Part shown: piece after piece, positions 2,739 to 22,920 of the stretch
How the letters are laid out: every line of letters starts with the position of its first letter
How positions within the stretch are numbered: position 1 is the first letter of the stretch
NCBI GenBank assembly: GCA_964441155.1
Contig: CAYYKL010000005.1
Location: forward strand, 4,434 to 68,433
Direction of reading: 5' to 3'
DNA length: 64,000 nucleotides
Source of the DNA: an uncultured Pseudomonadales bacterium
GTDB lineage: Bacteria; Patescibacteriota; Microgenomatia; UBA1400; RBG-16-45-19
Position numbers and translations under genes: made by a program
The notes under the pieces: generated by a model
What the model saw: the letters and a program-made list of their open reading frames with translations, nothing else
Databases searched by the model: none
What the model was told of the DNA's origin: nothing

Positions 2739-3622
2739 TAGATGCTCTTGATAAGTTCTACCACTTGTTTGAGTGTGAGTGGGGTTGGCACTTGACCTGC
2801 ATGCTTACGCGAACCATTAAGCAACATTGTCTTAGATGGATGCATATACCAAGTTCCGGTTGAATCTATGTGTTTTATCGCTTCATGAATCGGCGTTAAA
2901 TCAAAGCCTCGATCGGGTATGGCTTTGATTCTAATGTGACCTTTTTCTTGGTCTTTTCGCACAACTAATACCGAACCACGCTTTTGTGCCAACTTCACCA
3001 CCTCATCATTTTGGTTTTCAATCGCCATGGCTTTACCCCAGCGAGTTTCAAATTCAATTGTTTTATGAGCCAAATCATCGATAGCGGCGACAAATTCCTT
3101 GGTCGCTGCCAAAACGCCATCTAAACACACCATGCCAAATTCCAGAAGCTCATGATCACTAAAGTGTCTAACACTGCGCAAACCATTCAAAATTTCTTCG
3201 AGCATAAACAGATAACGATCGTTGTCTGCTTCGGGCCAATAACACGAGCCGAAATGATCGGTATCATTGATAAAATCAACGACCCGCTTGAGGGCTTCAT
3301 TATTGGAATAATCTGGATATTTAGTCAGCAAATAGTGGTATACGCGTAGCGTGGCCGAGTCGCGCAAATTGTTGTCTGGCTGATGATGGTCAAATGGCCC
3401 TAAACCAGTATCCACATGTATCACCTGGTCGCGATGTAAGCCTTTGGCAGCCAACACTTCGTCCGAAACTTCACTGCCAGCGTTTACAAAGTAATATTCA
3501 ACTTGAGAAAAATGTTGCTTGTCGAAGCGCATAAAGAGCCAACATGCGCCAATCGCATCCAAATCAGGATTTTGGTGAGTGGCCAGCATACGCACATCCA
3601 TCATGTCGTGAGTGGTTTGCAT
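2738..3622 (-). CDS. DHH-family phosphoesterase (NrnA-like nanoRNase/pAp phosphatase)
   Basis: THQNPDLDAIGACWL (DHH motif I) and GPFDHHQPDN (DHH motif III); 294 aa. Confidence 0.7.
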   Translation of the reverse strand: MQTTHDMMDVRMLATHQNPDLDAIGACWLFMRFDKQHFSQVEYYFVNAGSEVSDEVLAAKGLHRDQVIHVDTGLGPFDHHQPDNNLRDSATLRVYHYLLTKYPDYSNNEALKRVVDFINDTDHFGSCYWPEADNDRYLFMLEEILNGLRSVRHFSDHELLEFGMVCLDGVLAATKEFVAAIDDLAHKTIEFETRWGKAMAIENQNDEVVKLAQKRGSVLVVRKDQEKGHIRIKAIPDRGFDLTPIHEAIKHIDSTGTWYMHPSKTMLLNGSRKHAGQVPTPLTLKQVVELIKSI

Positions 3623-3625
3623 AGT

Positions 3626-5350
3626 TTATTTCGCACCTAACCGTTGTAACAAAGTGGTCCGATCAATAATCTCAAACGTTGCCTCACCTCGGCGTTTCCA
3701 TTCAACCTGGTCTCCCGTTTTTTCTGACACAACTAAGCGCACCGGGCATCCGATTAAGTCTGCATCAGCGAATTTTTTTCCGGGTGATTCATCGCGCTCA
3801 TCCCACAAGACTTCAATTCCTGAATCGGTTAACTGACCATACACAGTTTTAGCTTGTTGTTCAGACCCTTTAAGAGAAATGAGATGGACTGCATAGGGTG
3901 CAATTATCTCCGGCCAGAGCAAGCCACGATCATCGTGATAGATTTCGGCGATAGTTGCCATGGTGCGGGCCAATCCAATGCCATATGAACCCATATAATA
4001 CGGCTGTTTGGTGCCATCTGATGCGATGTAGCTAGCATTAGCCATTTTGTTTGCGTAGTGATGTCCAAGTTGAAAAATATTTCCCACTTCAATGCCCCGT
4101 TTTTCGATCAGTGGTTGGCCTGAATCTGTTAAAAATCCTGCCTGGGCCATGGCAATATCAGCTTCAATCTCGTGAGTGAAATCTCGACCATAATTAACGT
4201 GTTGCGAATCAGTCGCTTCTTCTTTTTGCCCGCCGATAAAGTTTTTGACATGCTTTAGCGACTCATCGGCAACATAGATCACTCGGGCATCGCGGTTTTC
4301 ACTCGATACTTTGCGGGGCGTAATAAATGAGTGTCCCCACGAATGCACATATCCATATTTGGTGCCGATGGCCTGCAAGTCTTCCGGTGTTGCATCCTCG
4401 AGCTGACCGACCAAATCCAGCGCATGCTCTAATTTGGTTTTGTTGACGTCCAGATCTCCGCGAATGGTGGCGATGATAATATCGCCTTGCCTGCTGCGGT
4501 AGACGACATTTTTGAGATAGCGCCAAGCCGGTTGCCCATAGTGTTTCAGGTTATCTTCCATGGTGCGTACCCACTCAGGTTGATCAACGATTGCAAAATC
4601 TTTGATCTCTTCATCGGGATTTTTGTGTTCGTGCCTAAATGTTGCCACATCTTCATGAGCGTAATACGAGCCATCTTCGGTCACAAAAAATCTGCCTTCC
4701 CCTTCTGGGTGTTCAACTTGAAACTCATGACAATATTCGCCACCAATGTAGCCATTGTCTGCTTCGACAACTAAAACTTCTAACCCCAGGCGTTTGAATA
4801 TGGTGAGATAGGCTTGCTTCATGTTTTCGTATTCTTTTTTAAACGCTTGCTCATCGACATCAAAGCTGTAGGCATCTTTCATGATAAATTCTCGCAAGCG
4901 CAATAACCCTCCACGAGCTCTCAGCTCATCTCGAAATTTGTTGGAAAATTGATAAATATTTATCGGCAGATCTTTATGCGACAAATTAAATTTACGCACC
5001 ACATCGGTAAACATTTCTTCAGCCGTTCCGCCAAGGGCAAATTCCCCACCGCGCCGGTCCACAATCTTCATGAGCTCAAACCCGGCAGTACTCGTGCGAT
5101 TGGTTTCTTTCCACAATTCCAGCGGATGAAGTGTGGGTGAAAGCATTTCTTGCGATCCGGCTTTATCCATTTCTTGTTTGATCACTGCTTTGATTTTGTC
5201 GTGCACCCTCCAACCCAATGGCAACATAAAATATCGCCCAGCCGCACTTTCACGAATGAAGCCACCCTTTACTAACAATTGATGGCTTTTTAGCTTTGAG
5301 CCTTTTTGCTCACCATGAGTCGTTTTGCCAAAGAGGCTTGAATAACGCAT
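3626..5350 (-). CDS. proS: proline--tRNA ligase (bacterial type with editing insertion)
   Basis: MRYSSLFGKT..SHQLLVKGGFIR..YFMLPLGWRV..LSPTLHPLELWKETNR matches the ProRS N-terminus. About 575 aa. ATG at 5350 is two codons inside the ORF-track GTG start. Confidence 0.9.
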   Translation of the reverse strand: MRYSSLFGKTTHGEQKGSKLKSHQLLVKGGFIRESAAGRYFMLPLGWRVHDKIKAVIKQEMDKAGSQEMLSPTLHPLELWKETNRTSTAGFELMKIVDRRGGEFALGGTAEEMFTDVVRKFNLSHKDLPINIYQFSNKFRDELRARGGLLRLREFIMKDAYSFDVDEQAFKKEYENMKQAYLTIFKRLGLEVLVVEADNGYIGGEYCHEFQVEHPEGEGRFFVTEDGSYYAHEDVATFRHEHKNPDEEIKDFAIVDQPEWVRTMEDNLKHYGQPAWRYLKNVVYRSRQGDIIIATIRGDLDVNKTKLEHALDLVGQLEDATPEDLQAIGTKYGYVHSWGHSFITPRKVSSENRDARVIYVADESLKHVKNFIGGQKEEATDSQHVNYGRDFTHEIEADIAMAQAGFLTDSGQPLIEKRGIEVGNIFQLGHHYANKMANASYIASDGTKQPYYMGSYGIGLARTMATIAEIYHDDRGLLWPEIIAPYAVHLISLKGSEQQAKTVYGQLTDSGIEVLWDERDESPGKKFADADLIGCPVRLVVSEKTGDQVEWKRRGEATFEIIDRTTLLQRLGAK

Positions 5351-9164: not shown

Positions 9165-9911
9165 CTACTTATTTCCTACTGCTTGATCCTGCGTTTTGCG
9201 TAGCGCTCTTCCATCCGCATACGCTTGGGCAATGCAGGTCATGACGAGCTTTATGGAGCGGATTGCATCGTCGTTGACGGGAATGGGATACGCAATTGGA
9301 TCAGGATCAGCGTTGCTGTCGACCATGCCGACAACAGGAATCCCTTTGCCAAAGGCTTCTTTGACTGCGGTATCTTCGTGGTGGGTGTCAACAATAAACA
9401 ATGCTTCTGGACCGTTTTTTAATCCAGCGAGACCTCCGAAAAAGCGGTTTAAACGGGCCATTTCTTTATCCAAGAGCACGCGCTCTTTTTTGGTGTAGTG
9501 AGCGAATTTGCCACCACTCAAGCCGTCTTGAAGCATTTTTAATCGATTTACTCGTTGAGTAATCTCTTCCCAATTAGTGATAACACCTCCAAGCCAGCGC
9601 TCGGTGATAAACGGTGCACCCAAGTTGATCGCTTCTTCTTTCACAATTGCTTGAGCTTGTCGCTTGGTACCAACCAAGACTATTTCTTTGCCGCTTGCCA
9701 CCCAGTCACGAACAAATTTCATCGCTTTTTCTAAGTGTTTAGCAGTGATGGCCAAATCAAAAATATGCACTCCGTCTCGAGCAGTATAGATGTATTTTTG
9801 CATCTTGGGATTCCATCGACGAATCTGGTGACCAAAATGGCACCCAGCCTCGAGCAAATCGCGCAAATCAACGGAATATTCAGCCGCTTGGGGCTGTGGT
9901 GAAGCACTCAT
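9165..9911 (-). CDS. rpsB: 30S ribosomal protein S2
   Basis: LLEAGCHFGHQIRRWNPKM..YIYTARDGVHIFDL..VLVGTKRQAQ..IVDTHHE; AAGGAG RBS. A putative TTGTTT-16-TATCAT promoter lies about 60-90 nt upstream. Confidence 0.9.
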   Translation of the reverse strand: MSASPQPQAAEYSVDLRDLLEAGCHFGHQIRRWNPKMQKYIYTARDGVHIFDLAITAKHLEKAMKFVRDWVASGKEIVLVGTKRQAQAIVKEEAINLGAPFITERWLGGVITNWEEITQRVNRLKMLQDGLSGGKFAHYTKKERVLLDKEMARLNRFFGGLAGLKNGPEALFIVDTHHEDTAVKEAFGKGIPVVGMVDSNADPDPIAYPIPVNDDAIRSIKLVMTCIAQAYADGRALRKTQDQAVGNK

Positions 9912-10045
9912 ATAATCTCCTTAAACCTCCGCTATAAAGCTCTTGCTAACCGCAGGAGATATGCTTTAAGCGTGTGAATTTTGTAACTTGAGGTATGATA
10001 GCAGAAATCTCAACCGAAACAAGACGCTGGCCACACCATGAATAC

Positions 10046-10118
10046 TGTTCGAGCAAAGCGAGAACTAATCGATTTTTTACTTCTCACTCGATAAATATTC
10101 GAGTTCGAAGAGTATTTG
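10046..10118. repeat. dispersed intergenic imperfect-palindrome repeat, copy B
   Basis: TGTTCGAGcaaagCGAGAACTA..ACTTCTCAC..GTTCGAAGAGTAT aligns at about 75% identity with copy A. Confidence 0.6.
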
Positions 10119-10167
10119 AGCGCTAGAAATATGAGATTATTATTACAAACTCTTGTTTAAATTCCAC

Positions 10168-10392
10168 CTAAAACCTGATAATTAAGTCAAACACCTCCAC
10201 ATCATGAGGACCCAAACCCGCTCGCCGCATATCCAGAACAAATGCTTGTTCTTCTACACGAGCATCAGAATACTCATGTAGTGGGTCGCTTGGATCTAAA
10301 CACTCAATCGGAAGTGCAACCATTCTATTTTCAATTCCCGGATGTTTTCTCGCCAATGCTTCAGACGTTTGATGATCAGATTCTCCTGACAT
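10168..10392 (-). CDS. hypothetical small acidic protein (74 aa), last gene of the HNH/PRTase operon
   Basis: The start overlaps the stop of the upstream PRTase-like gene by 1 nt, suggesting translational coupling. No known motif. Confidence 0.4.
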   Translation of the reverse strand: MSGESDHQTSEALARKHPGIENRMVALPIECLDPSDPLHEYSDARVEEQAFVLDMRRAGLGPHDVEVFDLIIRF

Positions 10393-11156
10393 TATTCACT
10401 CCTTTCAATTATTTTATTCACATCTTCTCCTTCAAATAGCGGCAGAACAAATGCAGTTTCAACTGCCAACTTTGGCACTTCAGCTTCATCATTTACTTCC
10501 CAAATCAGCCGATTTCCTTCGATTTTGACCAGTCTTGCCCGCTTCTCAGCTCCCACCGCAAACCTGGCATGCACAGCAACCTTAATTTTTTTAAGTAATT
10601 CTTCTATAGCTACAAAAGTATTACCCGTGCTCAAAATGTCATCAATCACAACGACAATTGCACCATTTTCAATCTCTTGCCTAATTTCATCTTCTTGCCC
10701 AAGTGACATGGCTAAATATCGAGGATTGTTACGTTTTGCGGTTACAGGGACATACTCTTGCACATGACCATCATATCCGTCCTCACGAACCCTGGGATCG
10801 TCTTCTGATTTATCAAAAACTAACAACCTATGCTCTAAACCCGTGCTCCGACTAAATTCTGATACCGCTTGACGACCCAAATCCCCAAACTTATCAGATC
10901 CTGGTGCAATAAATACAACACGCTTATCCTTTGGCAGTTGTTGAAACATTTCCGAAAAAGCAGCCAATCCCGCTATAAGCGTGGCCGAATCCCGCGGATT
11001 AAATCGAAACATGCGTTTAGGTCCGGGTATTTCCGTTGATTCCATATCAAAGGAATTTCCATACAATTGCTCTCTCCCTGCAAGAATTGGTGAACCATCA
11101 ACTTCTGTTTGAACTAATTGGAGAGAATGATAAGGAGTTTCGATTGATTGTGCCAT
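10392..11156 (-). CDS. phosphoribosyltransferase (type I PRTase) domain protein with an N-terminal extension of about 110 aa
   Basis: GAIVVVIDDILSTGNTFVAIEELL is a canonical PRPP-binding loop. At 254 aa it is longer than the Apt/Hpt/Upp/PyrE-type enzymes found elsewhere in this window. Confidence 0.6.
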   Translation of the reverse strand: MAQSIETPYHSLQLVQTEVDGSPILAGREQLYGNSFDMESTEIPGPKRMFRFNPRDSATLIAGLAAFSEMFQQLPKDKRVVFIAPGSDKFGDLGRQAVSEFSRSTGLEHRLLVFDKSEDDPRVREDGYDGHVQEYVPVTAKRNNPRYLAMSLGQEDEIRQEIENGAIVVVIDDILSTGNTFVAIEELLKKIKVAVHARFAVGAEKRARLVKIEGNRLIWEVNDEAEVPKLAVETAFVLPLFEGEDVNKIIERSE

Positions 11157-11242
11157 TGATTGTGCTTATGCAAAGCTATAGAAATAGTACGATAAAACAA
11201 AGCAAAACACACTATCCAAATCACTGTTTTCCCCCGTCTCCA

Positions 11243-11983
11243 CTACCTAACCTTCACAAGTTCGCGAGATCTTCTGAATAACGCATCAAGCTCATCATGT
11301 GAAATTCCGGGAATTGGATCAGGGCCGGGTTCTGGAGTATTCTCTGCAATTCCAAACAATGATTTAAACTTTCGCTCTAGTAGGAGCGCATCTCGCTCAG
11401 GAACTGTGGGTAATGGCAGTAATCCTTCACCACTTTCAACCTTTTTTTGTTGTTTGCGGTTTAAGGGAAAAGGATGCTCTGGTTCATACCTTGCATTTCG
11501 AGCGTTAATGATTCTTTCTAAGAATTCATCGTAATTAGTATTCCAATAAGGCTCGCCACGCTGGAGCAGCATTTGACGATTCTGGAACATGTCTGTGAAT
11601 GCTTCAGCATTTTTCGGCCGTGCCAAGTTTGCTGCCACCATGTCAGGGTGAATAACCCCAACATGATGCGGTTTACACAAGGTAATGCCATTATTTTTCA
11701 CATCCCAGTCAGCAGGTTCTAATCCTAGATCCAGAGCGAGTCTTTGAGGCACGATTGCGTGATGCACCTGCAATTGATTTCGGCTACCACAGGGTCGATA
11801 TGATTCATCACCCACCACCACGGGAAACTGACATTGATTATCATCACGATCCCTGACCCAACGCCGCTGTCTATCATTGTATGCGGCGGTGGCAAGTTCA
11901 TTTGTTTTATTTTCGATGCTGGGGGCTACTGAACTGAAGCTGGAAGCTACCAAGCCAATTTCTGGAGGCAGCTCGTTCCTCAT
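11243..11983 (-). CDS. HNH endonuclease domain protein
   Basis: CGSRNQLQVHHAIVPQRL...NNGITLCKPHH gives the C..N..HH...N...C.PHH HNH/beta-beta-alpha-Me pattern. It overlaps the upstream small ORF by 4 nt. Confidence 0.65.
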   Translation of the reverse strand: MRNELPPEIGLVASSFSSVAPSIENKTNELATAAYNDRQRRWVRDRDDNQCQFPVVVGDESYRPCGSRNQLQVHHAIVPQRLALDLGLEPADWDVKNNGITLCKPHHVGVIHPDMVAANLARPKNAEAFTDMFQNRQMLLQRGEPYWNTNYDEFLERIINARNARYEPEHPFPLNRKQQKKVESGEGLLPLPTVPERDALLLERKFKSLFGIAENTPEPGPDPIPGISHDELDALFRRSRELVKVR

Positions 11984-12261
11984 CGAATACTACTCCCTAC
12001 ATGAATTCTGCCTCTATATTGCAACCAATCTCCTTCAGCATCACCCAAAGGCGAATCACCAAGTCTCAACTCATTACGAATTACATAGAAAGCTTCTGCT
12101 TCTGGATTCGCATTTGGACGATTACCGGCAATAACTCCGTCTAACGCAGCATCAAAGGCAAGCAAGGCAAAGACATACTCAGGGCGTTGGGAAGCAAAAT
12201 TGAGATATTGCTTGAATTCTTCTTCACTTGCTATCCATGTTGTGTTTAGTTGTTCTGACAT
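11980..12261 (-). CDS. hypothetical protein (93 aa), first gene of the HNH/PRTase operon
   Basis: ORF has a 4-nt overlap with the HNH gene start. No recognisable motif. Confidence 0.4.
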   Translation of the reverse strand: MSEQLNTTWIASEEEFKQYLNFASQRPEYVFALLAFDAALDGVIAGNRPNANPEAEAFYVIRNELRLGDSPLGDAEGDWLQYRGRIHVGSSIR

Positions 12262-12297
12262 GTTTGAGGATTGATTTATTGCATACCCAGTATTAGT

Positions 12298-12313
12298 ATT
12301 GATTCAAATCAAT
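12298..12313. promoter_or_regulatory. perfect 16-bp palindrome ATTGATTCAAATCAAT in the divergent intergenic region (putative operator of the XRE regulator)
   Basis: 7-bp arms ATTGATT/AATCAAT with a 2-bp spacer sit between the operon start (12261) and the regulator gene. A TACAAT -10-like hexamer lies at 12350-12355. Confidence 0.55.
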
Positions 12314-12356
12314 AGATAATTTGATTCATATATACTTTTTCATATTTACTACAATC

Positions 12357-12782
12357 ATGTCAACCATTGATCCAAATCAAACATCTGCCCAGAAGATCGG
12401 AGCCTATATCCGCTATCAACGGACAAAGCGTGACTATTCCATTGATGATCTTGCCAAAAAATGTGATTTAAATCCTTCTTTTATCTTCAGACTGGAAAAA
12501 GGTGCTTACGAAACCATTCGACTCAATGTGATTGAGAAGCTGGCAGCTGGACTTAAAATGTCAATCCAAAGCCTATTGTTTAAATCGCAAATCATCACAA
12601 CGAGCGATCACCTGCCTCGGTTGGAGTATTACCTCAAGGAAAAATACCAATTCTCTCCCGAGGTTATCGAAGAGGTTCGCACGTTTATAAACTTTATGCA
12701 TTTCAAGCATGACGAAGAAATTGCTCAACTCAAGCAACTCCACGAGGCATATTGGAACAGATCTGATTATTTAGAAGAATAA
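12357..12782 (+). CDS. XRE-family helix-turn-helix transcriptional regulator
   Basis: IRYQRTKRDYSIDDLAKKCDLNPSFIFRLEKG is a Cro/C1-type HTH. The ORF track extends to a TTG at 12321 with a hydrophobic, probably spurious, N-terminal extension. Confidence 0.7.
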   Translation: MSTIDPNQTSAQKIGAYIRYQRTKRDYSIDDLAKKCDLNPSFIFRLEKGAYETIRLNVIEKLAAGLKMSIQSLLFKSQIITTSDHLPRLEYYLKEKYQFSPEVIEEVRTFINFMHFKHDEEIAQLKQLHEAYWNRSDYLEE

Positions 12783-12809
12783 GTGTCGATCAATTTAAGA
12801 GAATTCAAT

Positions 12810-13703
12810 TTAGATCAATTGGGTGAGATTTTCAAGTAAGCATGCGACAGTAACCGGTCCTACGCCACTGGGCACAGGCGTGATAAAAGACGTTTTGGGC
12901 GCAACCGTTTCAAAATCCACATCTGCTCCAGGCGCGCCGACATCGATGACGATTGCTCCGGGCTTAACCATTTCGCCAGTGATGAGTTTTGATTTTCCCG
13001 TGGCCGAGATAATAAGGTCACTTGAGTTCAGGGTGCGAGAAAGCAAGTCAGGATCCATCGAAGTGCCCAATAAAGACACGTGTGCAGCCCCTTTGTGTTG
13101 CAACACCGCAGCCAACGGACGACCCACCAGCTCACTTCGACCGACAACACTGACATTTAGTTGAATTAGTTCAGGAATTGGCTGAGGAGCAGCGCTGGTC
13201 AATCTTTGCACGTCAACCTTTAGCGCCTCGGCTAAGATGTGCAGCACTGCTTTGACCGTGGCGGGGAGCAAAACCCAAGTTCCCTCATATACTTTGTTTA
13301 AATTTTTTCGAGTCAAGCAATCGACATCTTTGGCTGGGTCGATGGCTGAAGTCAGCTCCCTCCACCAATCGTCAAATCGCGCGGGGCTTTTGCCGGTTAT
13401 GTGCGCCCAAGAGCGTTTGCCTGGTTTTTGAATCATTACTCCGGTGACGTCTGAGCGCTTACTTGCAGAGCGAATGCTTGCTTGAATGAGCGAAACGGAA
13501 TCAGTGAGTGAGTGATCGATGCGGTCGAACTCAATACCCACCTGCACTGCGGCTTCGTGCTTGAGTCGAGTGTAGATCTGCGACGGTTCGTCTTCAGCAA
13601 AAACAACGCTCACCAAGCGCAATTTTGCATTTTTGTTGCTTTGCGTTAAAATACGCAACAGATGAGTAGCAAAAGCTGCGCCATCAAAAATGGTTGAGTT
13701 CAT
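12810..13703 (-). CDS. folD: bifunctional methylenetetrahydrofolate dehydrogenase/cyclohydrolase
   Basis: VGRSELVGRPLAAVL, DLIISATG, GAIVIDVG and TPVPSGVGPVTVACLL are FolD signatures. Confidence 0.8.
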   Translation of the reverse strand: MNSTIFDGAAFATHLLRILTQSNKNAKLRLVSVVFAEDEPSQIYTRLKHEAAVQVGIEFDRIDHSLTDSVSLIQASIRSASKRSDVTGVMIQKPGKRSWAHITGKSPARFDDWWRELTSAIDPAKDVDCLTRKNLNKVYEGTWVLLPATVKAVLHILAEALKVDVQRLTSAAPQPIPELIQLNVSVVGRSELVGRPLAAVLQHKGAAHVSLLGTSMDPDLLSRTLNSSDLIISATGKSKLITGEMVKPGAIVIDVGAPGADVDFETVAPKTSFITPVPSGVGPVTVACLLENLTQLI

Positions 13704-13731: not shown

Positions 13732-14019
13732 ATGCCAGGCGAAGTAACTAGGATTCATTTAGTACCAGATCAAGGCAGCCTCGTTAACTTAGCTCAAGCC
13801 GAACAATTAACTTTTCTGGCACGAACGCTTGTCCCAGACTTGGGAATCATCGTAACTCCTTATAACCGCGATCTCGTTCGCGGTGGAGCTGTACTTCTAG
13901 TGGCAGAACCATGGACTGATGCTGCATCGAAACCCCGTACTGGAAGAATTTTCCAAATGGCTGATGCATTAGAGGCTGCACTTCTTGAATCCCTTAACCA
14001 CGAGAGATTAGCTAGATAG
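13732..14019 (+). CDS. hypothetical small protein (95 aa)
   Basis: Only an ORF in an otherwise empty spacer between folD and the HD gene. No motif and no clear RBS. Confidence 0.25.
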   Translation: MPGEVTRIHLVPDQGSLVNLAQAEQLTFLARTLVPDLGIIVTPYNRDLVRGGAVLLVAEPWTDAASKPRTGRIFQMADALEAALLESLNHERLAR

Positions 14020-19216: not shown

Positions 19217-19795
19217 TTAATTTCTGTTTAACTCAACTTCTAGTTGGTCACTAGTTAATCCTATTGATTTGGTGAATGCTTCAAATTGCTCACGTACACC
19301 AATATTTTCATGAATTAAATGCTTTAGTTCGCGAATCGTTTCGGCCCATTCATAGGGAAACACCACCCATTGATTGGTGGCTTCAGCCACAAAATCTGGT
19401 TTGTAGGTGCTATGGGGTTTGGCAAAAAGGCACGCACTCTTGAGCAAAATTGGCTCAAGACCTTTCAAGTTTGCAAGCGCCACCTCAAACGTGCGGCCAG
19501 AATCACAAATTTCGTCAACGAGCAGCACTTTTTTGCCCGCCATCCCCTGAGTGAGCGGTTGATACACGACAATTTCACCTTTTTGCCCTATCCCTTGATA
19601 TGAGCGCAAGCCGATGTTGAGCACAGGTAAATCAAGAAGGTCTGAGAGGATCCGCGCTAAAAGAGCCCCACCTCGAGAGATCGACACGATTTCTTCATAG
19701 GTTTCACCCGAGGCAACCACCATTTGAGCGAGCTGAAAACTTAACCGATTGAAGTTGGGAAAATCAATAAAACGTAAATCCGGAATGGTTGCCAT
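19217..19795 (-). CDS. hpt: purine phosphoribosyltransferase (Hpt/Xpt-like)
   Basis: KKVLLVDEICDSGRTF PRPP-binding loop; 192 aa. Confidence 0.65.
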   Translation of the reverse strand: MATIPDLRFIDFPNFNRLSFQLAQMVVASGETYEEIVSISRGGALLARILSDLLDLPVLNIGLRSYQGIGQKGEIVVYQPLTQGMAGKKVLLVDEICDSGRTFEVALANLKGLEPILLKSACLFAKPHSTYKPDFVAEATNQWVVFPYEWAETIRELKHLIHENIGVREQFEAFTKSIGLTSDQLEVELNRN

Positions 19796-21646: not shown

Positions 21647-22276
21647 TTATATTTCTGTGCCAAAATACCGATCGCCATAGTCTCCCAATCCGGGCACAAT
21701 ATATTTTTTGGCATTGAGATGTGAATCTACCGCTGCCGTGAAGATTTTAATGTTTGGATACTTATTTTGAATGGTTTCGATTCCTTCTGGTGCCACGAGC
21801 ACGCAAACAATGCGAATTTCTTTGGGATTGGCCTTTGCTACGCGCTCCAATAGATGCGCAATAGATCCTCCGGTAGCCAACATTGGATCGGTAACCATTA
21901 CCACAGTGTCTTGCGAAATATGAGGCATTTTCCAATAATATTCTGAAGCAATAGCTGTCTTTTCATCTCGAACCATGCCCACAAATCCAACCTTAGCTTT
22001 GGGCAGCAATTTCAGTGCTCCAAACAACATGCACGTTCCGGAGCGTAAAACCGGCACGATCATAATTTCTTCGGCAAATTTTTCACTCTCAATTTTTGCA
22101 AGTGGTGTGTCTATAGTTGTTTGTTTGAACGTTAAACCTTTAATTGCTTCTGAAAATAACAGCTCACATAACTGATCGCTGTAATGGCGAAATGTTTCAA
22201 TCGACGTATTTTTGTCTCGCAAATGAGTCAAAGAATCGCAGACAAAAGGATTCTGGGAAATATACACGTTTTTCAT
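21647..22276 (-). CDS. upp: uracil phosphoribosyltransferase
   Basis: VVMVTDPMLATGGS and YIVPGLGDYGDRYFGT; 209 aa. Confidence 0.85.
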   Translation of the reverse strand: MKNVYISQNPFVCDSLTHLRDKNTSIETFRHYSDQLCELLFSEAIKGLTFKQTTIDTPLAKIESEKFAEEIMIVPVLRSGTCMLFGALKLLPKAKVGFVGMVRDEKTAIASEYYWKMPHISQDTVVMVTDPMLATGGSIAHLLERVAKANPKEIRIVCVLVAPEGIETIQNKYPNIKIFTAAVDSHLNAKKYIVPGLGDYGDRYFGTEI

Positions 22277-22920
22277 GATTGCCTAGTTCGTGATTCTTGC
22301 CACTTCAAAGGATCTCTCAACCACGATTCCACTGCCTTGCACGCTTTGGCATCAATAATCTGCTCATCAATCGCTCGTGGCAAGATTTGCTCAAACGAAG
22401 TCAGGGTGTGCAGCGCAACATTCGCTTCAGCAAAACTCTCAGTAGCTGCACTAAAACCATAACTCGTGATCGCAATACAATCGTGCACGGTTGCACCCTC
22501 GTCACGCAGCGCGCTAACTCCCGCCAAGCTACTTCCTCCTGTAGTTATGTGATCCTCAAGCAACAATACTTTTTTACCACGCACCTCACCGCCTTCAATC
22601 ATTTTTTTGGTGCCGTGATCCTTGGCACTTTTTCGCACAAACACCGATGGCACTTCAAGGGCATAGCCCAAAGCGGCAGAGTGTGGGATTCCAGCTGTTT
22701 CGATGCCGGCTATGACCTCAAAGTTGAGATTCTTTTCTTTTATGAGCTGTCTAAAACCCTCAATAATCACTTTCCAAGCTTGAGGGTGATGCGGAAATCG
22801 CCGGTTATCAATATAAACAGGCGAAACGATTCCCGACTTAAAGGTGATCGGATTATCGACCACAAATCCCACCGCTTTAATTGATAAAAGTGCTTGCGCA
22901 ACGTTTTGAGCATAGTTCAT
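22273..22920 (-). CDS. pyrE: orotate phosphoribosyltransferase
   Basis: FKSGIVSPVYIDNR, VRKSAKDHG and KKVLLLEDHITTGGS; 4-nt overlap with upp. Confidence 0.8.
   Translation of the reverse strand: MNYAQNVAQALLSIKAVGFVVDNPITFKSGIVSPVYIDNRRFPHHPQAWKVIIEGFRQLIKEKNLNFEVIAGIETAGIPHSAALGYALEVPSVFVRKSAKDHGTKKMIEGGEVRGKKVLLLEDHITTGGSSLAGVSALRDEGATVHDCIAITSYGFSAATESFAEANVALHTLTSFEQILPRAIDEQIIDAKACKAVESWLRDPLKWQESRTRQS

Follow-up and report, generated by a model that had tools for sequence, protein, structure and literature searches.

The window analyzed in this study is a 64-kb stretch of contig CAYYKL010000005.1, and the locus of interest within it lies between folD and rpsB. The locus contains a gene for an XRE-family helix-turn-helix (HTH) regulator and, divergent from it, four open reading frames (ORFs) that encode a 93-aa protein, an HNH endonuclease, a 254-aa protein resembling type I phosphoribosyltransferases (PRTases) and a 74-aa protein. 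An initial annotation, made from the sequence alone, treated these four as one compact operon and as a defense- or toxin-like island. Comparison with related lineages separates the locus into two units. Unit B, probably a phage-derived, repressor-controlled HNH cassette, would have been inserted upstream of Unit A, a vertically inherited, housekeeping-type salvage gene pair formed by the PRTase-like gene and the 74-aa ORF.

Two units between folD and rpsB

The supposed four-gene operon is divided into two units because Unit A keeps its site and its leader without the cassette in related lineages. Only six close relatives of the 254-aa protein were found among 5.8 billion proteins (54-100% identity), and the surrounding DNA was fetched for each. 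Unit A is located between folD and rpsB in all six of the related lineages found. In L007 and L008 (82% identity in the PRTase-like protein), L006 (79%) and L005 (54%), folD is followed directly by the PRTase-like gene, an ORF of 71-82 aa and rpsB. In L001 (78%), an unrelated 932-bp segment (L001 9009-9940) occupies the spot between folD and the PRTase-like gene and encodes a 175-aa ORF with no Pfam match. In L009 (62%), an HNH gene 71% identical to that of the window at the amino acid level precedes the PRTase-like gene, and the right-hand junction is the same as in the window. The cassette was counted in two of the six lineages, a clean folD-PRTase junction in three and an unrelated insert in one. 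The Unit A pair occupies the same site without the XRE gene, the 93-aa ORF and the HNH gene in four of the six.

The limits of the two units were placed by comparison with cassette-free alleles. In blastn alignments of the window with L006 and L007, homology ends at 12820 and resumes at 11219, which sets the break points at window positions 11219/11220 and approximately 12809-12820. Unit B thus extends over about 1.6 kb (11220-12809) and starts right after the stop codon of folD (12810-13703, minus strand; THF_DHG_CYH domains), its left-hand neighbor, which is kept in all lineages. The cassette-free junction of the L007 type reads TGTAATTTTCCAAATTGGATAGTGTG. Unit A (10168-11222) consists of a leader, the PRTase-like gene and the 74-aa ORF, and its right-hand neighbor is rpsB (9165-9911, minus strand; Ribosomal_S2), followed by tsf and frr; the placement of the rpsB-tsf-frr genes immediately downstream, proposed earlier, was confirmed. 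The GC content of the cassette (42.3%) is close to that of the window (44.1%), and no compositional anomaly was found.

The right-hand boundary of the cassette coincides with a conserved non-coding leader of 38 nt, TTGGATAGTGTGTTTTGCTTTGTTTTATCGTACTATTT (11182-11219, minus strand), upstream of the PRTase-like gene. The leader is identical in L007 and has two mismatches in L001 and four in L005, whereas the adjacent coding DNA is 71-84% identical. It is kept in all lineages, whether the cassette is present or not, and its sequence is unique in the window. The cassette ends exactly at this leader, and the PRTase-like gene keeps its own upstream element in both kinds of allele. The leader matched neither the sigma-70 consensus nor an Rfam family, and Rfam returned nothing meaningful for the cassette. 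An upstream ORF within the leader was considered and rejected, since the lineages disagree in its frame and in the placement of its stops.

The ORFs and the tight overlaps described in the initial annotation were confirmed on the sequence: 4 nt between the 93-aa ORF and the HNH gene (ATGA, 11980-11983) and 1 nt between the PRTase-like gene and the 74-aa ORF (TAATG, 10392). The single compact operon that had been built on them does not hold, since an 86-nt gap separates the HNH gene from the PRTase-like gene, this gap contains the leader kept in lineages without the HNH gene, and Unit A stands alone in four of the six lineages. No terminator was predicted between the HNH gene and the PRTase-like gene, and read-through from one into the other is possible; the two would be neighbors through insertion and not parts of one functional system.

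The PRTase-like protein and its 74-aa partner

The core of Unit A is the gene for the 254-aa type I PRTase-like protein (10392-11156, minus strand), which belongs to the APRT/XPRT/PurR branch. The protein matches Pfam Pribosyltran (PF00156) with an E-value of 5.2e-8 and 32.8 bits against a cut-off of 26.3. Its phosphoribosyl pyrophosphate (PRPP)-binding loop is intact (VVVIDDILSTGNT), with D172, D173 and T180 invariant in close and remote relatives, and the five-stranded parallel beta-sheet core of the type I PRTase fold is present. The PRPP loop (DD..STG.T) and a loop carrying S87 and K89 are invariant even in relatives of 20% identity. An exhaustive profile search of 1.84 billion representatives returned only 29 relatives, which form a loose family of 230-260 aa with common N-terminal strands, a P-x-S-x-K-S loop, a Y-x-P-V/I-T motif and the PRPP loop. 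One of them is annotated as coming from Candidatus Dojkabacteria. The remote relatives (approximately 20-27% identity) are found on Patescibacteria-type contigs, either beside genes for NUDIX and nucleoside 2-deoxyribosyltransferase proteins or in housekeeping surroundings.

Profile and structural comparisons place the protein in the APRT/XPRT/PurR branch. Nearly the whole family profile (positions 27-208) could be aligned with PDB entries 5zgo and 6fsp (E 5.5e-9), and classical APRTs came next in the list; the depositors named these two entries adenine PRTase and PRPP-binding adenine/guanine PRTase. Predicted structures had been suggested as a check on the initial annotation, and this succeeded for the core of the PRTase-like protein (residues 56-200 usable), for which Foldseek ranked human APRT first, followed by PyrR and HPRT, but not for the HNH protein, whose AlphaFold model, built from a five-sequence alignment, was too poor for fold comparison (pLDDT 40). 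The best structural neighbors of the PRTase-like protein also include a Thermus "PRTase-related protein" and PurR. The N-terminal extension reported earlier is real as far as the residues go; most of it, however, is APRT-like fold outside the Pfam model, aligned from about residue 27.

Unit A ends a nucleotide-metabolism cluster that contains pyrE (22273-22920), upp (21647-22276), pyrF, a purine nucleoside phosphorylase (PNP) gene, an hpt/xpt-like PRTase gene (19217-19795), dNK and folD; L001 and L005 have this cluster as well. The presence of hpt/xpt-like, upp and pyrE genes elsewhere in the window was thus correctly noted in the initial annotation. The conclusion drawn there, that a further PRTase is unlikely to be housekeeping, does not take into account that the Pfam and NCBIfam scan of the window ORFs revealed no apt. 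The PRTase-like protein is most likely a divergent purine salvage PRTase of the adenine type, judged from sequence comparison; this is the only salvage PRTase activity not otherwise found among those ORFs. It would fill the adenine-type slot left by pyrE, upp and the hpt/xpt-like gene. Unit A as a whole is the vertically inherited chromosomal part of the locus, comprising the leader, the divergent PRTase and the coupled 74-aa protein.

The closest known systems are the Thermus-type APRT-like PRTases (PDB 5ZGO, 6FSP and 1VCH; PRK07322) and the classical APRT and XPRT enzymes. The window protein shares with them the type I fold, the canonical PRPP loop and a gene in a nucleotide-salvage neighborhood, and the N-terminal strand pair before the core also aligns with the Thermus-type proteins. 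In contrast, it is only about 15-20% identical to the Thermus-type proteins and APRTs, carries approximately 25 extra N-terminal and 50 extra C-terminal residues, and has the P-x-S-x-K-S loop and Y-x-P-V-T motif of its own family. Ordinary APRTs also have no parallel to the obligately coupled 74-aa partner, and an APRT-like activity of the window protein is a prediction.

The partner is an acidic 74-aa protein, whose gene (10168-10392, minus strand) shows translational coupling with that of the PRTase. All six lineages have an ORF of 71-82 aa at this place behind the PRTase-like gene, with a conserved core, RM..P...L....L..Y..R. No match to the 74-aa protein was found in Pfam, NCBIfam, PHROG, PADLOC or PDB (the last also searched by profile), and the ORF is absent beside the remote PRTase relatives; the protein would be a lineage-specific partner of the PRTase. 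The ratio of nonsynonymous to synonymous substitution rates (dN/dS) is 0.19-0.30 for the PRTase-like gene and 0.3-0.55 for the 74-aa ORF, compared with 0.03-0.09 for folD and rpsB. Both genes of the pair are under purifying selection, which is weaker than that on folD and rpsB.

A regulatory, non-catalytic role of the PRTase-like protein is a serious alternative, though we consider it unlikely. The protein would then be a nucleotide or PRPP sensor, comparable to the Thermus APRT homologue, PurR or PyrR, with the 74-aa protein as its target or partner. A regulatory protein of this kind is documented in T. thermophilus, where a catalytically inactive APRT homologue activates glutamate dehydrogenase on binding AMP (bioRxiv 10.1101/2025.10.31.685773, citing Tomita et al. 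2019). The structural neighbors (the Thermus "PRTase-related protein," PurR and PyrR), a dN/dS above that of core enzymes, the obligately coupled small partner and the extra N- and C-terminal segments all fit such a role. However, the invariant PRPP loop and S87/K89 loop are no less compatible with catalysis, Pfam and NCBIfam revealed no domain for binding DNA or RNA, and the missing apt among the scanned ORFs leaves a catalytic slot to fill.

Two observations were made on the wider family and the source organism. In L020 (4466-7696) and L038 (1559-4791), a remote PRTase (approximately 25% identity) closes a conserved five-gene cluster in the order nucleoside 2-deoxyribosyltransferase, 255-aa ORF, NUDIX, 134-aa ORF and PRTase. 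These are Candidatus Dojkabacteria-type contigs with differing flanks, one of them beside genes for an SNF2 helicase, DUF4391 and DUF2779. The 150-aa EF-Ts, the small conserved cluster and the remote PRTase relatives suggest a Patescibacteria-like organism. The 64-kb window contains no tRNA gene, no rRNA marker and no Rfam family at the gathering threshold.

The HNH cassette and its putative repressor

Unit B consists of the XRE gene, the 93-aa ORF and the HNH gene. The XRE/CI-like HTH regulator of 141 aa is encoded on the plus strand from an ATG at 12357 to 12782, with an alternative TTG start at 12321, divergent from the operon of the 93-aa ORF (11980-12261, minus strand), which is the first gene, and the HNH gene (11243-11983, minus strand; 246 aa). 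The assignments of the divergent XRE regulator, the HNH protein and the PRTase in the initial annotation were borne out, respectively by HTH_3, by the HNH_2 matches of relatives together with invariant residues, and by Pribosyltran. The XRE protein matched Pfam HTH_3 (E 4.6e-8) and a PHROG transcriptional regulator/repressor family (E 3e-9). In PADLOC, its HTH part alone matched HTH_VI (1.4e-10), a control protein (4e-7) and a CapH-like model (5e-7). Weak HTH-level matches to CI-like repressors of temperate phages were obtained with tblastn, and no match was found in IMG/VR.

Two operator-like sequences were identified near the start of the XRE gene. The first, O1 (12297-12314), occupies the center of the 95-bp divergent spacer and had been described as a perfect 16-bp palindrome, ATTGATTCAAATCAAT. 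Its central CA is not self-complementary, so that it is really an inverted repeat whose two 8-bp arms are separated by 2 nt (TATTGATT-CA-AATCAATA); ATTGATTNNAATCAAT has one exact match in the window. The second, O2 (ATTGATCCAAATCAAA, 12366-12381), lies inside codons 4-9 of the XRE gene, 68 bp from O1, and is a direct copy of it at 15 of 16 positions (93% identical), scored as a 2-mismatch match. The O1 motif at two or fewer mismatches occurs five times in the window against 1.0 expected, and none of 100 shuffles reached five. What lies above chance is the near copy O2 together with the central place of O1 in the divergent spacer. A sigma-70 scan found a consensus promoter neither in the divergent spacer nor in the leader. 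In addition, the half-site heptamer ATTGATT is enriched, 7 of its 38 window copies lying within 1.2 kb (11143-12313). Two of the copies flank the start codon of the PRTase-like gene, and the first of these also occurs in lineages without an XRE gene.

In the simplest model, the XRE repressor controls its own gene and the 93-aa/HNH operon through the candidate operators O1 and O2. It would bind the 8+2+8 repeat and its near copy, silencing the nuclease operon and its own gene. The arrangement resembles that of CI/Cro switches and of the C proteins of restriction-modification systems, in which a small HTH regulator is divergent from or ahead of the genes it controls and two related palindromic operators lie in or next to its own promoter region, as predicted here for O1 and O2. 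In contrast to these systems, no second (Cro-like) HTH gene was detected and neither a methyltransferase nor a peptidase domain is present, and operator binding by the XRE protein is a prediction.

The HNH protein itself gave only weak profile matches (HNH_2, E 0.036, 14.3 bits against a cut-off of 21; PHROG HNH, E 3.7e-4), and four of its five relatives matched HNH_2 (best E 5.7e-5). The motif string RDDNQCQFP..C..LQVHH..PQR..NGITLC..HH..IHPDM contains C51, C65, H74, H75, N98, C103, H106 and H107. The protein thus has the catalytic His, Asn and His of the HNH (beta-beta-alpha-metal) superfamily together with zinc-binding Cys/His pairs around them. Of these residues, C51, H74, H75, C103 and H107 do not vary in an alignment of ten sequences, and N98 is almost invariant. 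The family profile matched a solved HNH nicking endonuclease (E 2.5e-4) and the HNH domain of IscB in PDB. Between the window and L009 the HNH gene has a dN/dS of 0.09 and a synonymous divergence (dS) of 2.2. Because purifying selection is this strong, the gene appears functional rather than decaying, and it is probably an old, working nuclease gene and not debris. The window arrangement was found 100% identical in five other samples of the organism (L013-L017). In a sixth sample (L018, 99.8% identical), a 1-nt deletion at approximately position 262 (window approximately 11613, in an A5 run) splits the HNH gene into ORFs of 118 and 109 aa; the deletion may be genuine and inactivate the gene, or it may be an artifact of assembly.

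Few members of the HNH family were found: the set of 5.8 billion proteins contained four relatives, and metagenomes added thirteen distant ones. Those with a genomic context are in phage-like surroundings. For example, the relative on L010 (40% identity) is directly beside genes for TerS, TerL and a major head protein, an amidase being encoded on the same contig, and that on L029 (37%) follows an endolysin gene. The contigs of L010 and L011 (44%) carry MazG-like genes. On L012, the HNH gene (51%) is convergent with a tyrosine integrase gene (E 1e-16). Two genes upstream of it is a 79-aa ORF to which the 93-aa ORF of the window is homologous (29% identical over the full length, pairwise E 2e-5). 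The 93-aa protein had no family match in Pfam, NCBIfam, PADLOC or PHROG, none in phages and none in PDB.

In many phages, the gene neighboring cos and the terminase genes is one for an HNH endonuclease (PMC3592412). The window protein resembles this HK97 gp74 type in its HNH motif and zinc-binding Cys/His set, in its profile match to the solved nicking endonuclease and in the 40%-identical relative that lies directly beside TerS/TerL in a phage contig. In contrast to that type, the window gene is chromosomal, has no terminase or virion gene nearby and is partnered by an XRE repressor. Its protein has a C-terminal tail of about 60 residues, found only in the closest relatives, and shows no detectable similarity to cultured-phage or IMG/VR sequences.

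Origin of the cassette and comparison with known systems

Unit B is, on sequence evidence, probably a phage-derived accessory cassette and at most a remnant or derivative of an integrative element. The insertion would have taken place precisely at the boundary between the stop codon of folD and the leader of Unit A. It has three genes only, with core genes on both sides. A gain of the cassette rather than its repeated loss is favored for three reasons. First, the outgroup L005 has no cassette. Second, the nearest relatives outside these lineages are in phage contexts. Third, a different insert is present in L001, which also suggests that the folD/PRTase spacer is an insertion hot spot. The island proposed in the initial annotation is therefore partly retained, as the XRE, 93-aa and HNH genes appear to be a genuine accessory insertion with phage affinities, and partly not, as the PRTase pair does not belong to it. 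Free-standing homing endonuclease genes (HNH, GIY-YIG) offer a close parallel, since the cassette, like them, shows presence/absence polymorphism at a precise site between conserved genes, the same junction in two divergent lineages and an intact nuclease gene under selection. In contrast to them, the cassette carries its own repressor and an extra ORF and is found in a bacterial chromosome, not a phage genome. Its copies are old (dS 2.2) with no sign of recent spread, and cleavage of the empty allele is putative. The cassette may persist because it is selfish and homing-like, or because its nuclease has been domesticated.

Several points weigh against the combination of a phage-derived insertion and a salvage gene pair. 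For the cassette, no integrase, att sites or virion genes were found within it, and no clear target-site duplication or flanking repeats. No relatives of the HNH protein were found in cultured phages (by tblastn) or IMG/VR. The HNH dS of 2.2 between the window and L009 is not below the PRTase dS of 1.0, which makes the cassette old, and the event may have been a gain or a repeated loss. The repressor's binding to its operators is deduced, and the O1 inverted repeat alone is statistically ordinary: about 22 inverted repeats with arms of at least 7 occur in the window, and one appears in approximately 10% of simulations of the AT-rich stretch. For the gene pair, every PRTase equivalog curated in NCBIfam scored far below its cut-off (TIGR01090 apt, 23.3 bits against 185.85; PRK07322, 28.1 against 143), so that the protein is not an orthologue of any known salvage enzyme. 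Its structural model has moderate confidence (pLDDT 57), and the dN/dS of its gene exceeds that of folD and rpsB. Salvage PRTases do not usually have a partner such as the 74-aa protein, and the absence of a canonical apt applies to the window ORFs scanned.

A weak resemblance to AAATTGRAT at both cassette ends and at the empty site was considered as a target-site duplication and rejected as evidence. The synonymous divergence of the region is mosaic. In comparisons of the window with L001, L006 and L007, dS is 0.42-0.62 for the PRTase-like gene and 1.3-1.5 for the adjacent folD; for rpsB it is 0.35 against L006 and 1.38 against L001. Such a mosaic suggests that the lineages have recombined or that synonymous sites are constrained.

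Three further readings of the cassette were weighed. In the first, which we regard as doubtful, the XRE, 93-aa and HNH genes are a domesticated, stand-alone defense or restriction-like module that benefits the host, with the 93-aa protein as a possible modulator and the PRTase pair unrelated. Such domestication would agree with the strong purifying selection on the HNH gene, with the resemblance of the XRE HTH to defense regulators and restriction-modification control proteins in PADLOC, with the identical arrangement in five other samples and with the gathering of small selfish or defense-type modules (ParE, PIN) in the same cluster of L005. However, PADLOC gave no match for the HNH and 93-aa proteins, the HTH matches are generic, no methyltransferase or other self-protection gene is nearby, the closest HNH contexts are phage packaging, lysis and integrase genes, and one population variant has a frameshifted HNH gene.

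In the second, of similarly low probability, the cassette is ancestral and was cleanly lost several times, the HNH-then-PRTase order being the original arrangement. The junction between the HNH gene and the leader is identical in the window and in the more distant L009, the HNH dS of 2.2 indicates that the copies diverged long ago, L001 keeps a short GGAGA-like stretch at the right-hand junction, and the mosaic dS shows frequent recombination that could delete a cassette. Given the age of the cassette and the mosaic dS, recombination could in fact move it either way. Against an ancestral cassette, the most distant lineage, L005, has none, nor have L006, L007 and L008, whose junctions are clean; the HNH gene and the 93-aa ORF have their nearest outside relatives in phage or integrase surroundings, and the different insert in L001 marks an insertion hot spot.

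The third is less probable again and has two non-exclusive parts. The cassette would be a self-regulated, homing-type nuclease element that targets the folD-PRTase spacer of an uncultivated, probably Patescibacteria-like lineage, and the PRTase with its 74-aa partner would be a new, lineage-specific two-component module for nucleotide sensing or salvage under control of the unusually conserved leader. If the first part is true, the cassette is a bacterial chromosomal example of a free-standing homing endonuclease that comes with its own repressor.

The initial reading of all four genes as one XRE-controlled defense or toxin island, with the HNH and PRTase proteins as joint effectors and with immunity or antitoxin functions for the small ORFs, is the least probable and is largely refuted by synteny: co-directional genes, the lack of a predicted HNH-PRTase terminator, tight overlaps within gene pairs, the HNH gene ahead of the PRTase-like gene in two lineages (the window and L009) and PADLOC matches to ShosT and a retron PRTase speak for it, but four of the six lineages have the PRTase-like gene, small ORF and leader without the HNH gene, 93-aa ORF and XRE gene, the PRTase-like gene is syntenic and vertically inherited in a nucleotide-metabolism cluster, and HNH relatives elsewhere are never beside a PRTase. 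The profile search recommended with the initial annotation did return these weak ShosT and retron matches to the PRTase-like protein, and nothing for the HNH, 93-aa and 74-aa proteins. The ShosT match (E 1.2e-6) is confined to residues 141-194, which align with positions 145-201 of a 237-position model, short of a full-length ShosT, and the match to retron PRTase_III-A (E 0.019) covers about 30 residues. Both are limited to the approximately 50-residue PRPP loop that is common to all type I PRTases.

Thus, the PRTase-like protein is hard to maintain as a defense effector, given its vertical inheritance by rpsB, its dN/dS of 0.19-0.30, its APRT-type relatives and the restriction of the ShosT and retron matches to the PRPP loop. 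The initial annotation itself had named conservation next to rpsB with a housekeeping role, or orthology to a standard salvage enzyme, as evidence against an island. The PRTase pair is indeed conserved next to rpsB in the nucleotide-metabolism cluster, but the protein is not a standard salvage-enzyme orthologue by its profile scores, and the cassette is accessory.

The locus probably matches no known defense system, as judged by gene content. The effectors of ShosT (Shosta) and retron type III-A systems have a type I PRTase domain like the window protein; unlike theirs, the window gene is syntenic and vertically inherited and does not lie in a variable island. The genes called between pyrF and dnaX include none resembling ShosA/DprA, and the 10 kb to each side of the PRTase-like gene contain no DprA domain. 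PADLOC likewise matched none of the neighbors of the PRTase-like gene (the 74-aa ORF, rpsB, the HNH gene and folD). The called genes in these 20 kb have no recorded reverse-transcriptase domain, although several are without Pfam annotation and no search specific for reverse transcriptases was made. No retron non-coding RNA family was matched in Rfam across 9800-13000. No methyltransferase domain lies in or next to the cassette, whereas restriction-modification with a C protein would call for one. A type II toxin-antitoxin system with an XRE antitoxin does not fit either, since the XRE gene is divergent and the 93-aa protein matches no toxin family. Any island-like, possibly defensive nature is confined at most to the three-gene cassette.

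Nothing categorically new is present at the locus, and Unit B joins two familiar parts. The analysis is mainly of value as a correction, since a mobile nuclease cassette and a core metabolic gene had resembled a defense operon through being adjacent and co-oriented. The ShosT match confined to the PRPP loop strengthened this false impression, and comparison of related genomes separates the units. The narrow, uncharacterized APRT-like family could represent an adenine-salvage enzyme, if the organism has no canonical apt. In addition, a member of a rare phage-associated HNH family is seen here under strong purifying selection after settling in a chromosome, and the intergenic gaps of the nucleotide-metabolism cluster appear as landing sites for small selfish modules.

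Variable genes were also observed at other positions of the neighborhood. In L005, toxin-antitoxin pairs of the ParE type and the PIN type (1987-2492 and 3453-4129) lie within the nucleotide-metabolism cluster, in the pyrF/PNP and PNP/hpt gaps. The small ORF upstream of folD also varies by lineage. In the window it is a 95-aa ORF (13732-14019, plus strand) homologous only to a 90-aa ORF of L005, and the folD-upstream ORFs of L001 (7703-8110), L006 (2350-2658) and L007 (2-286) are unrelated to that of the window, which makes this a second variable spot flanking folD.

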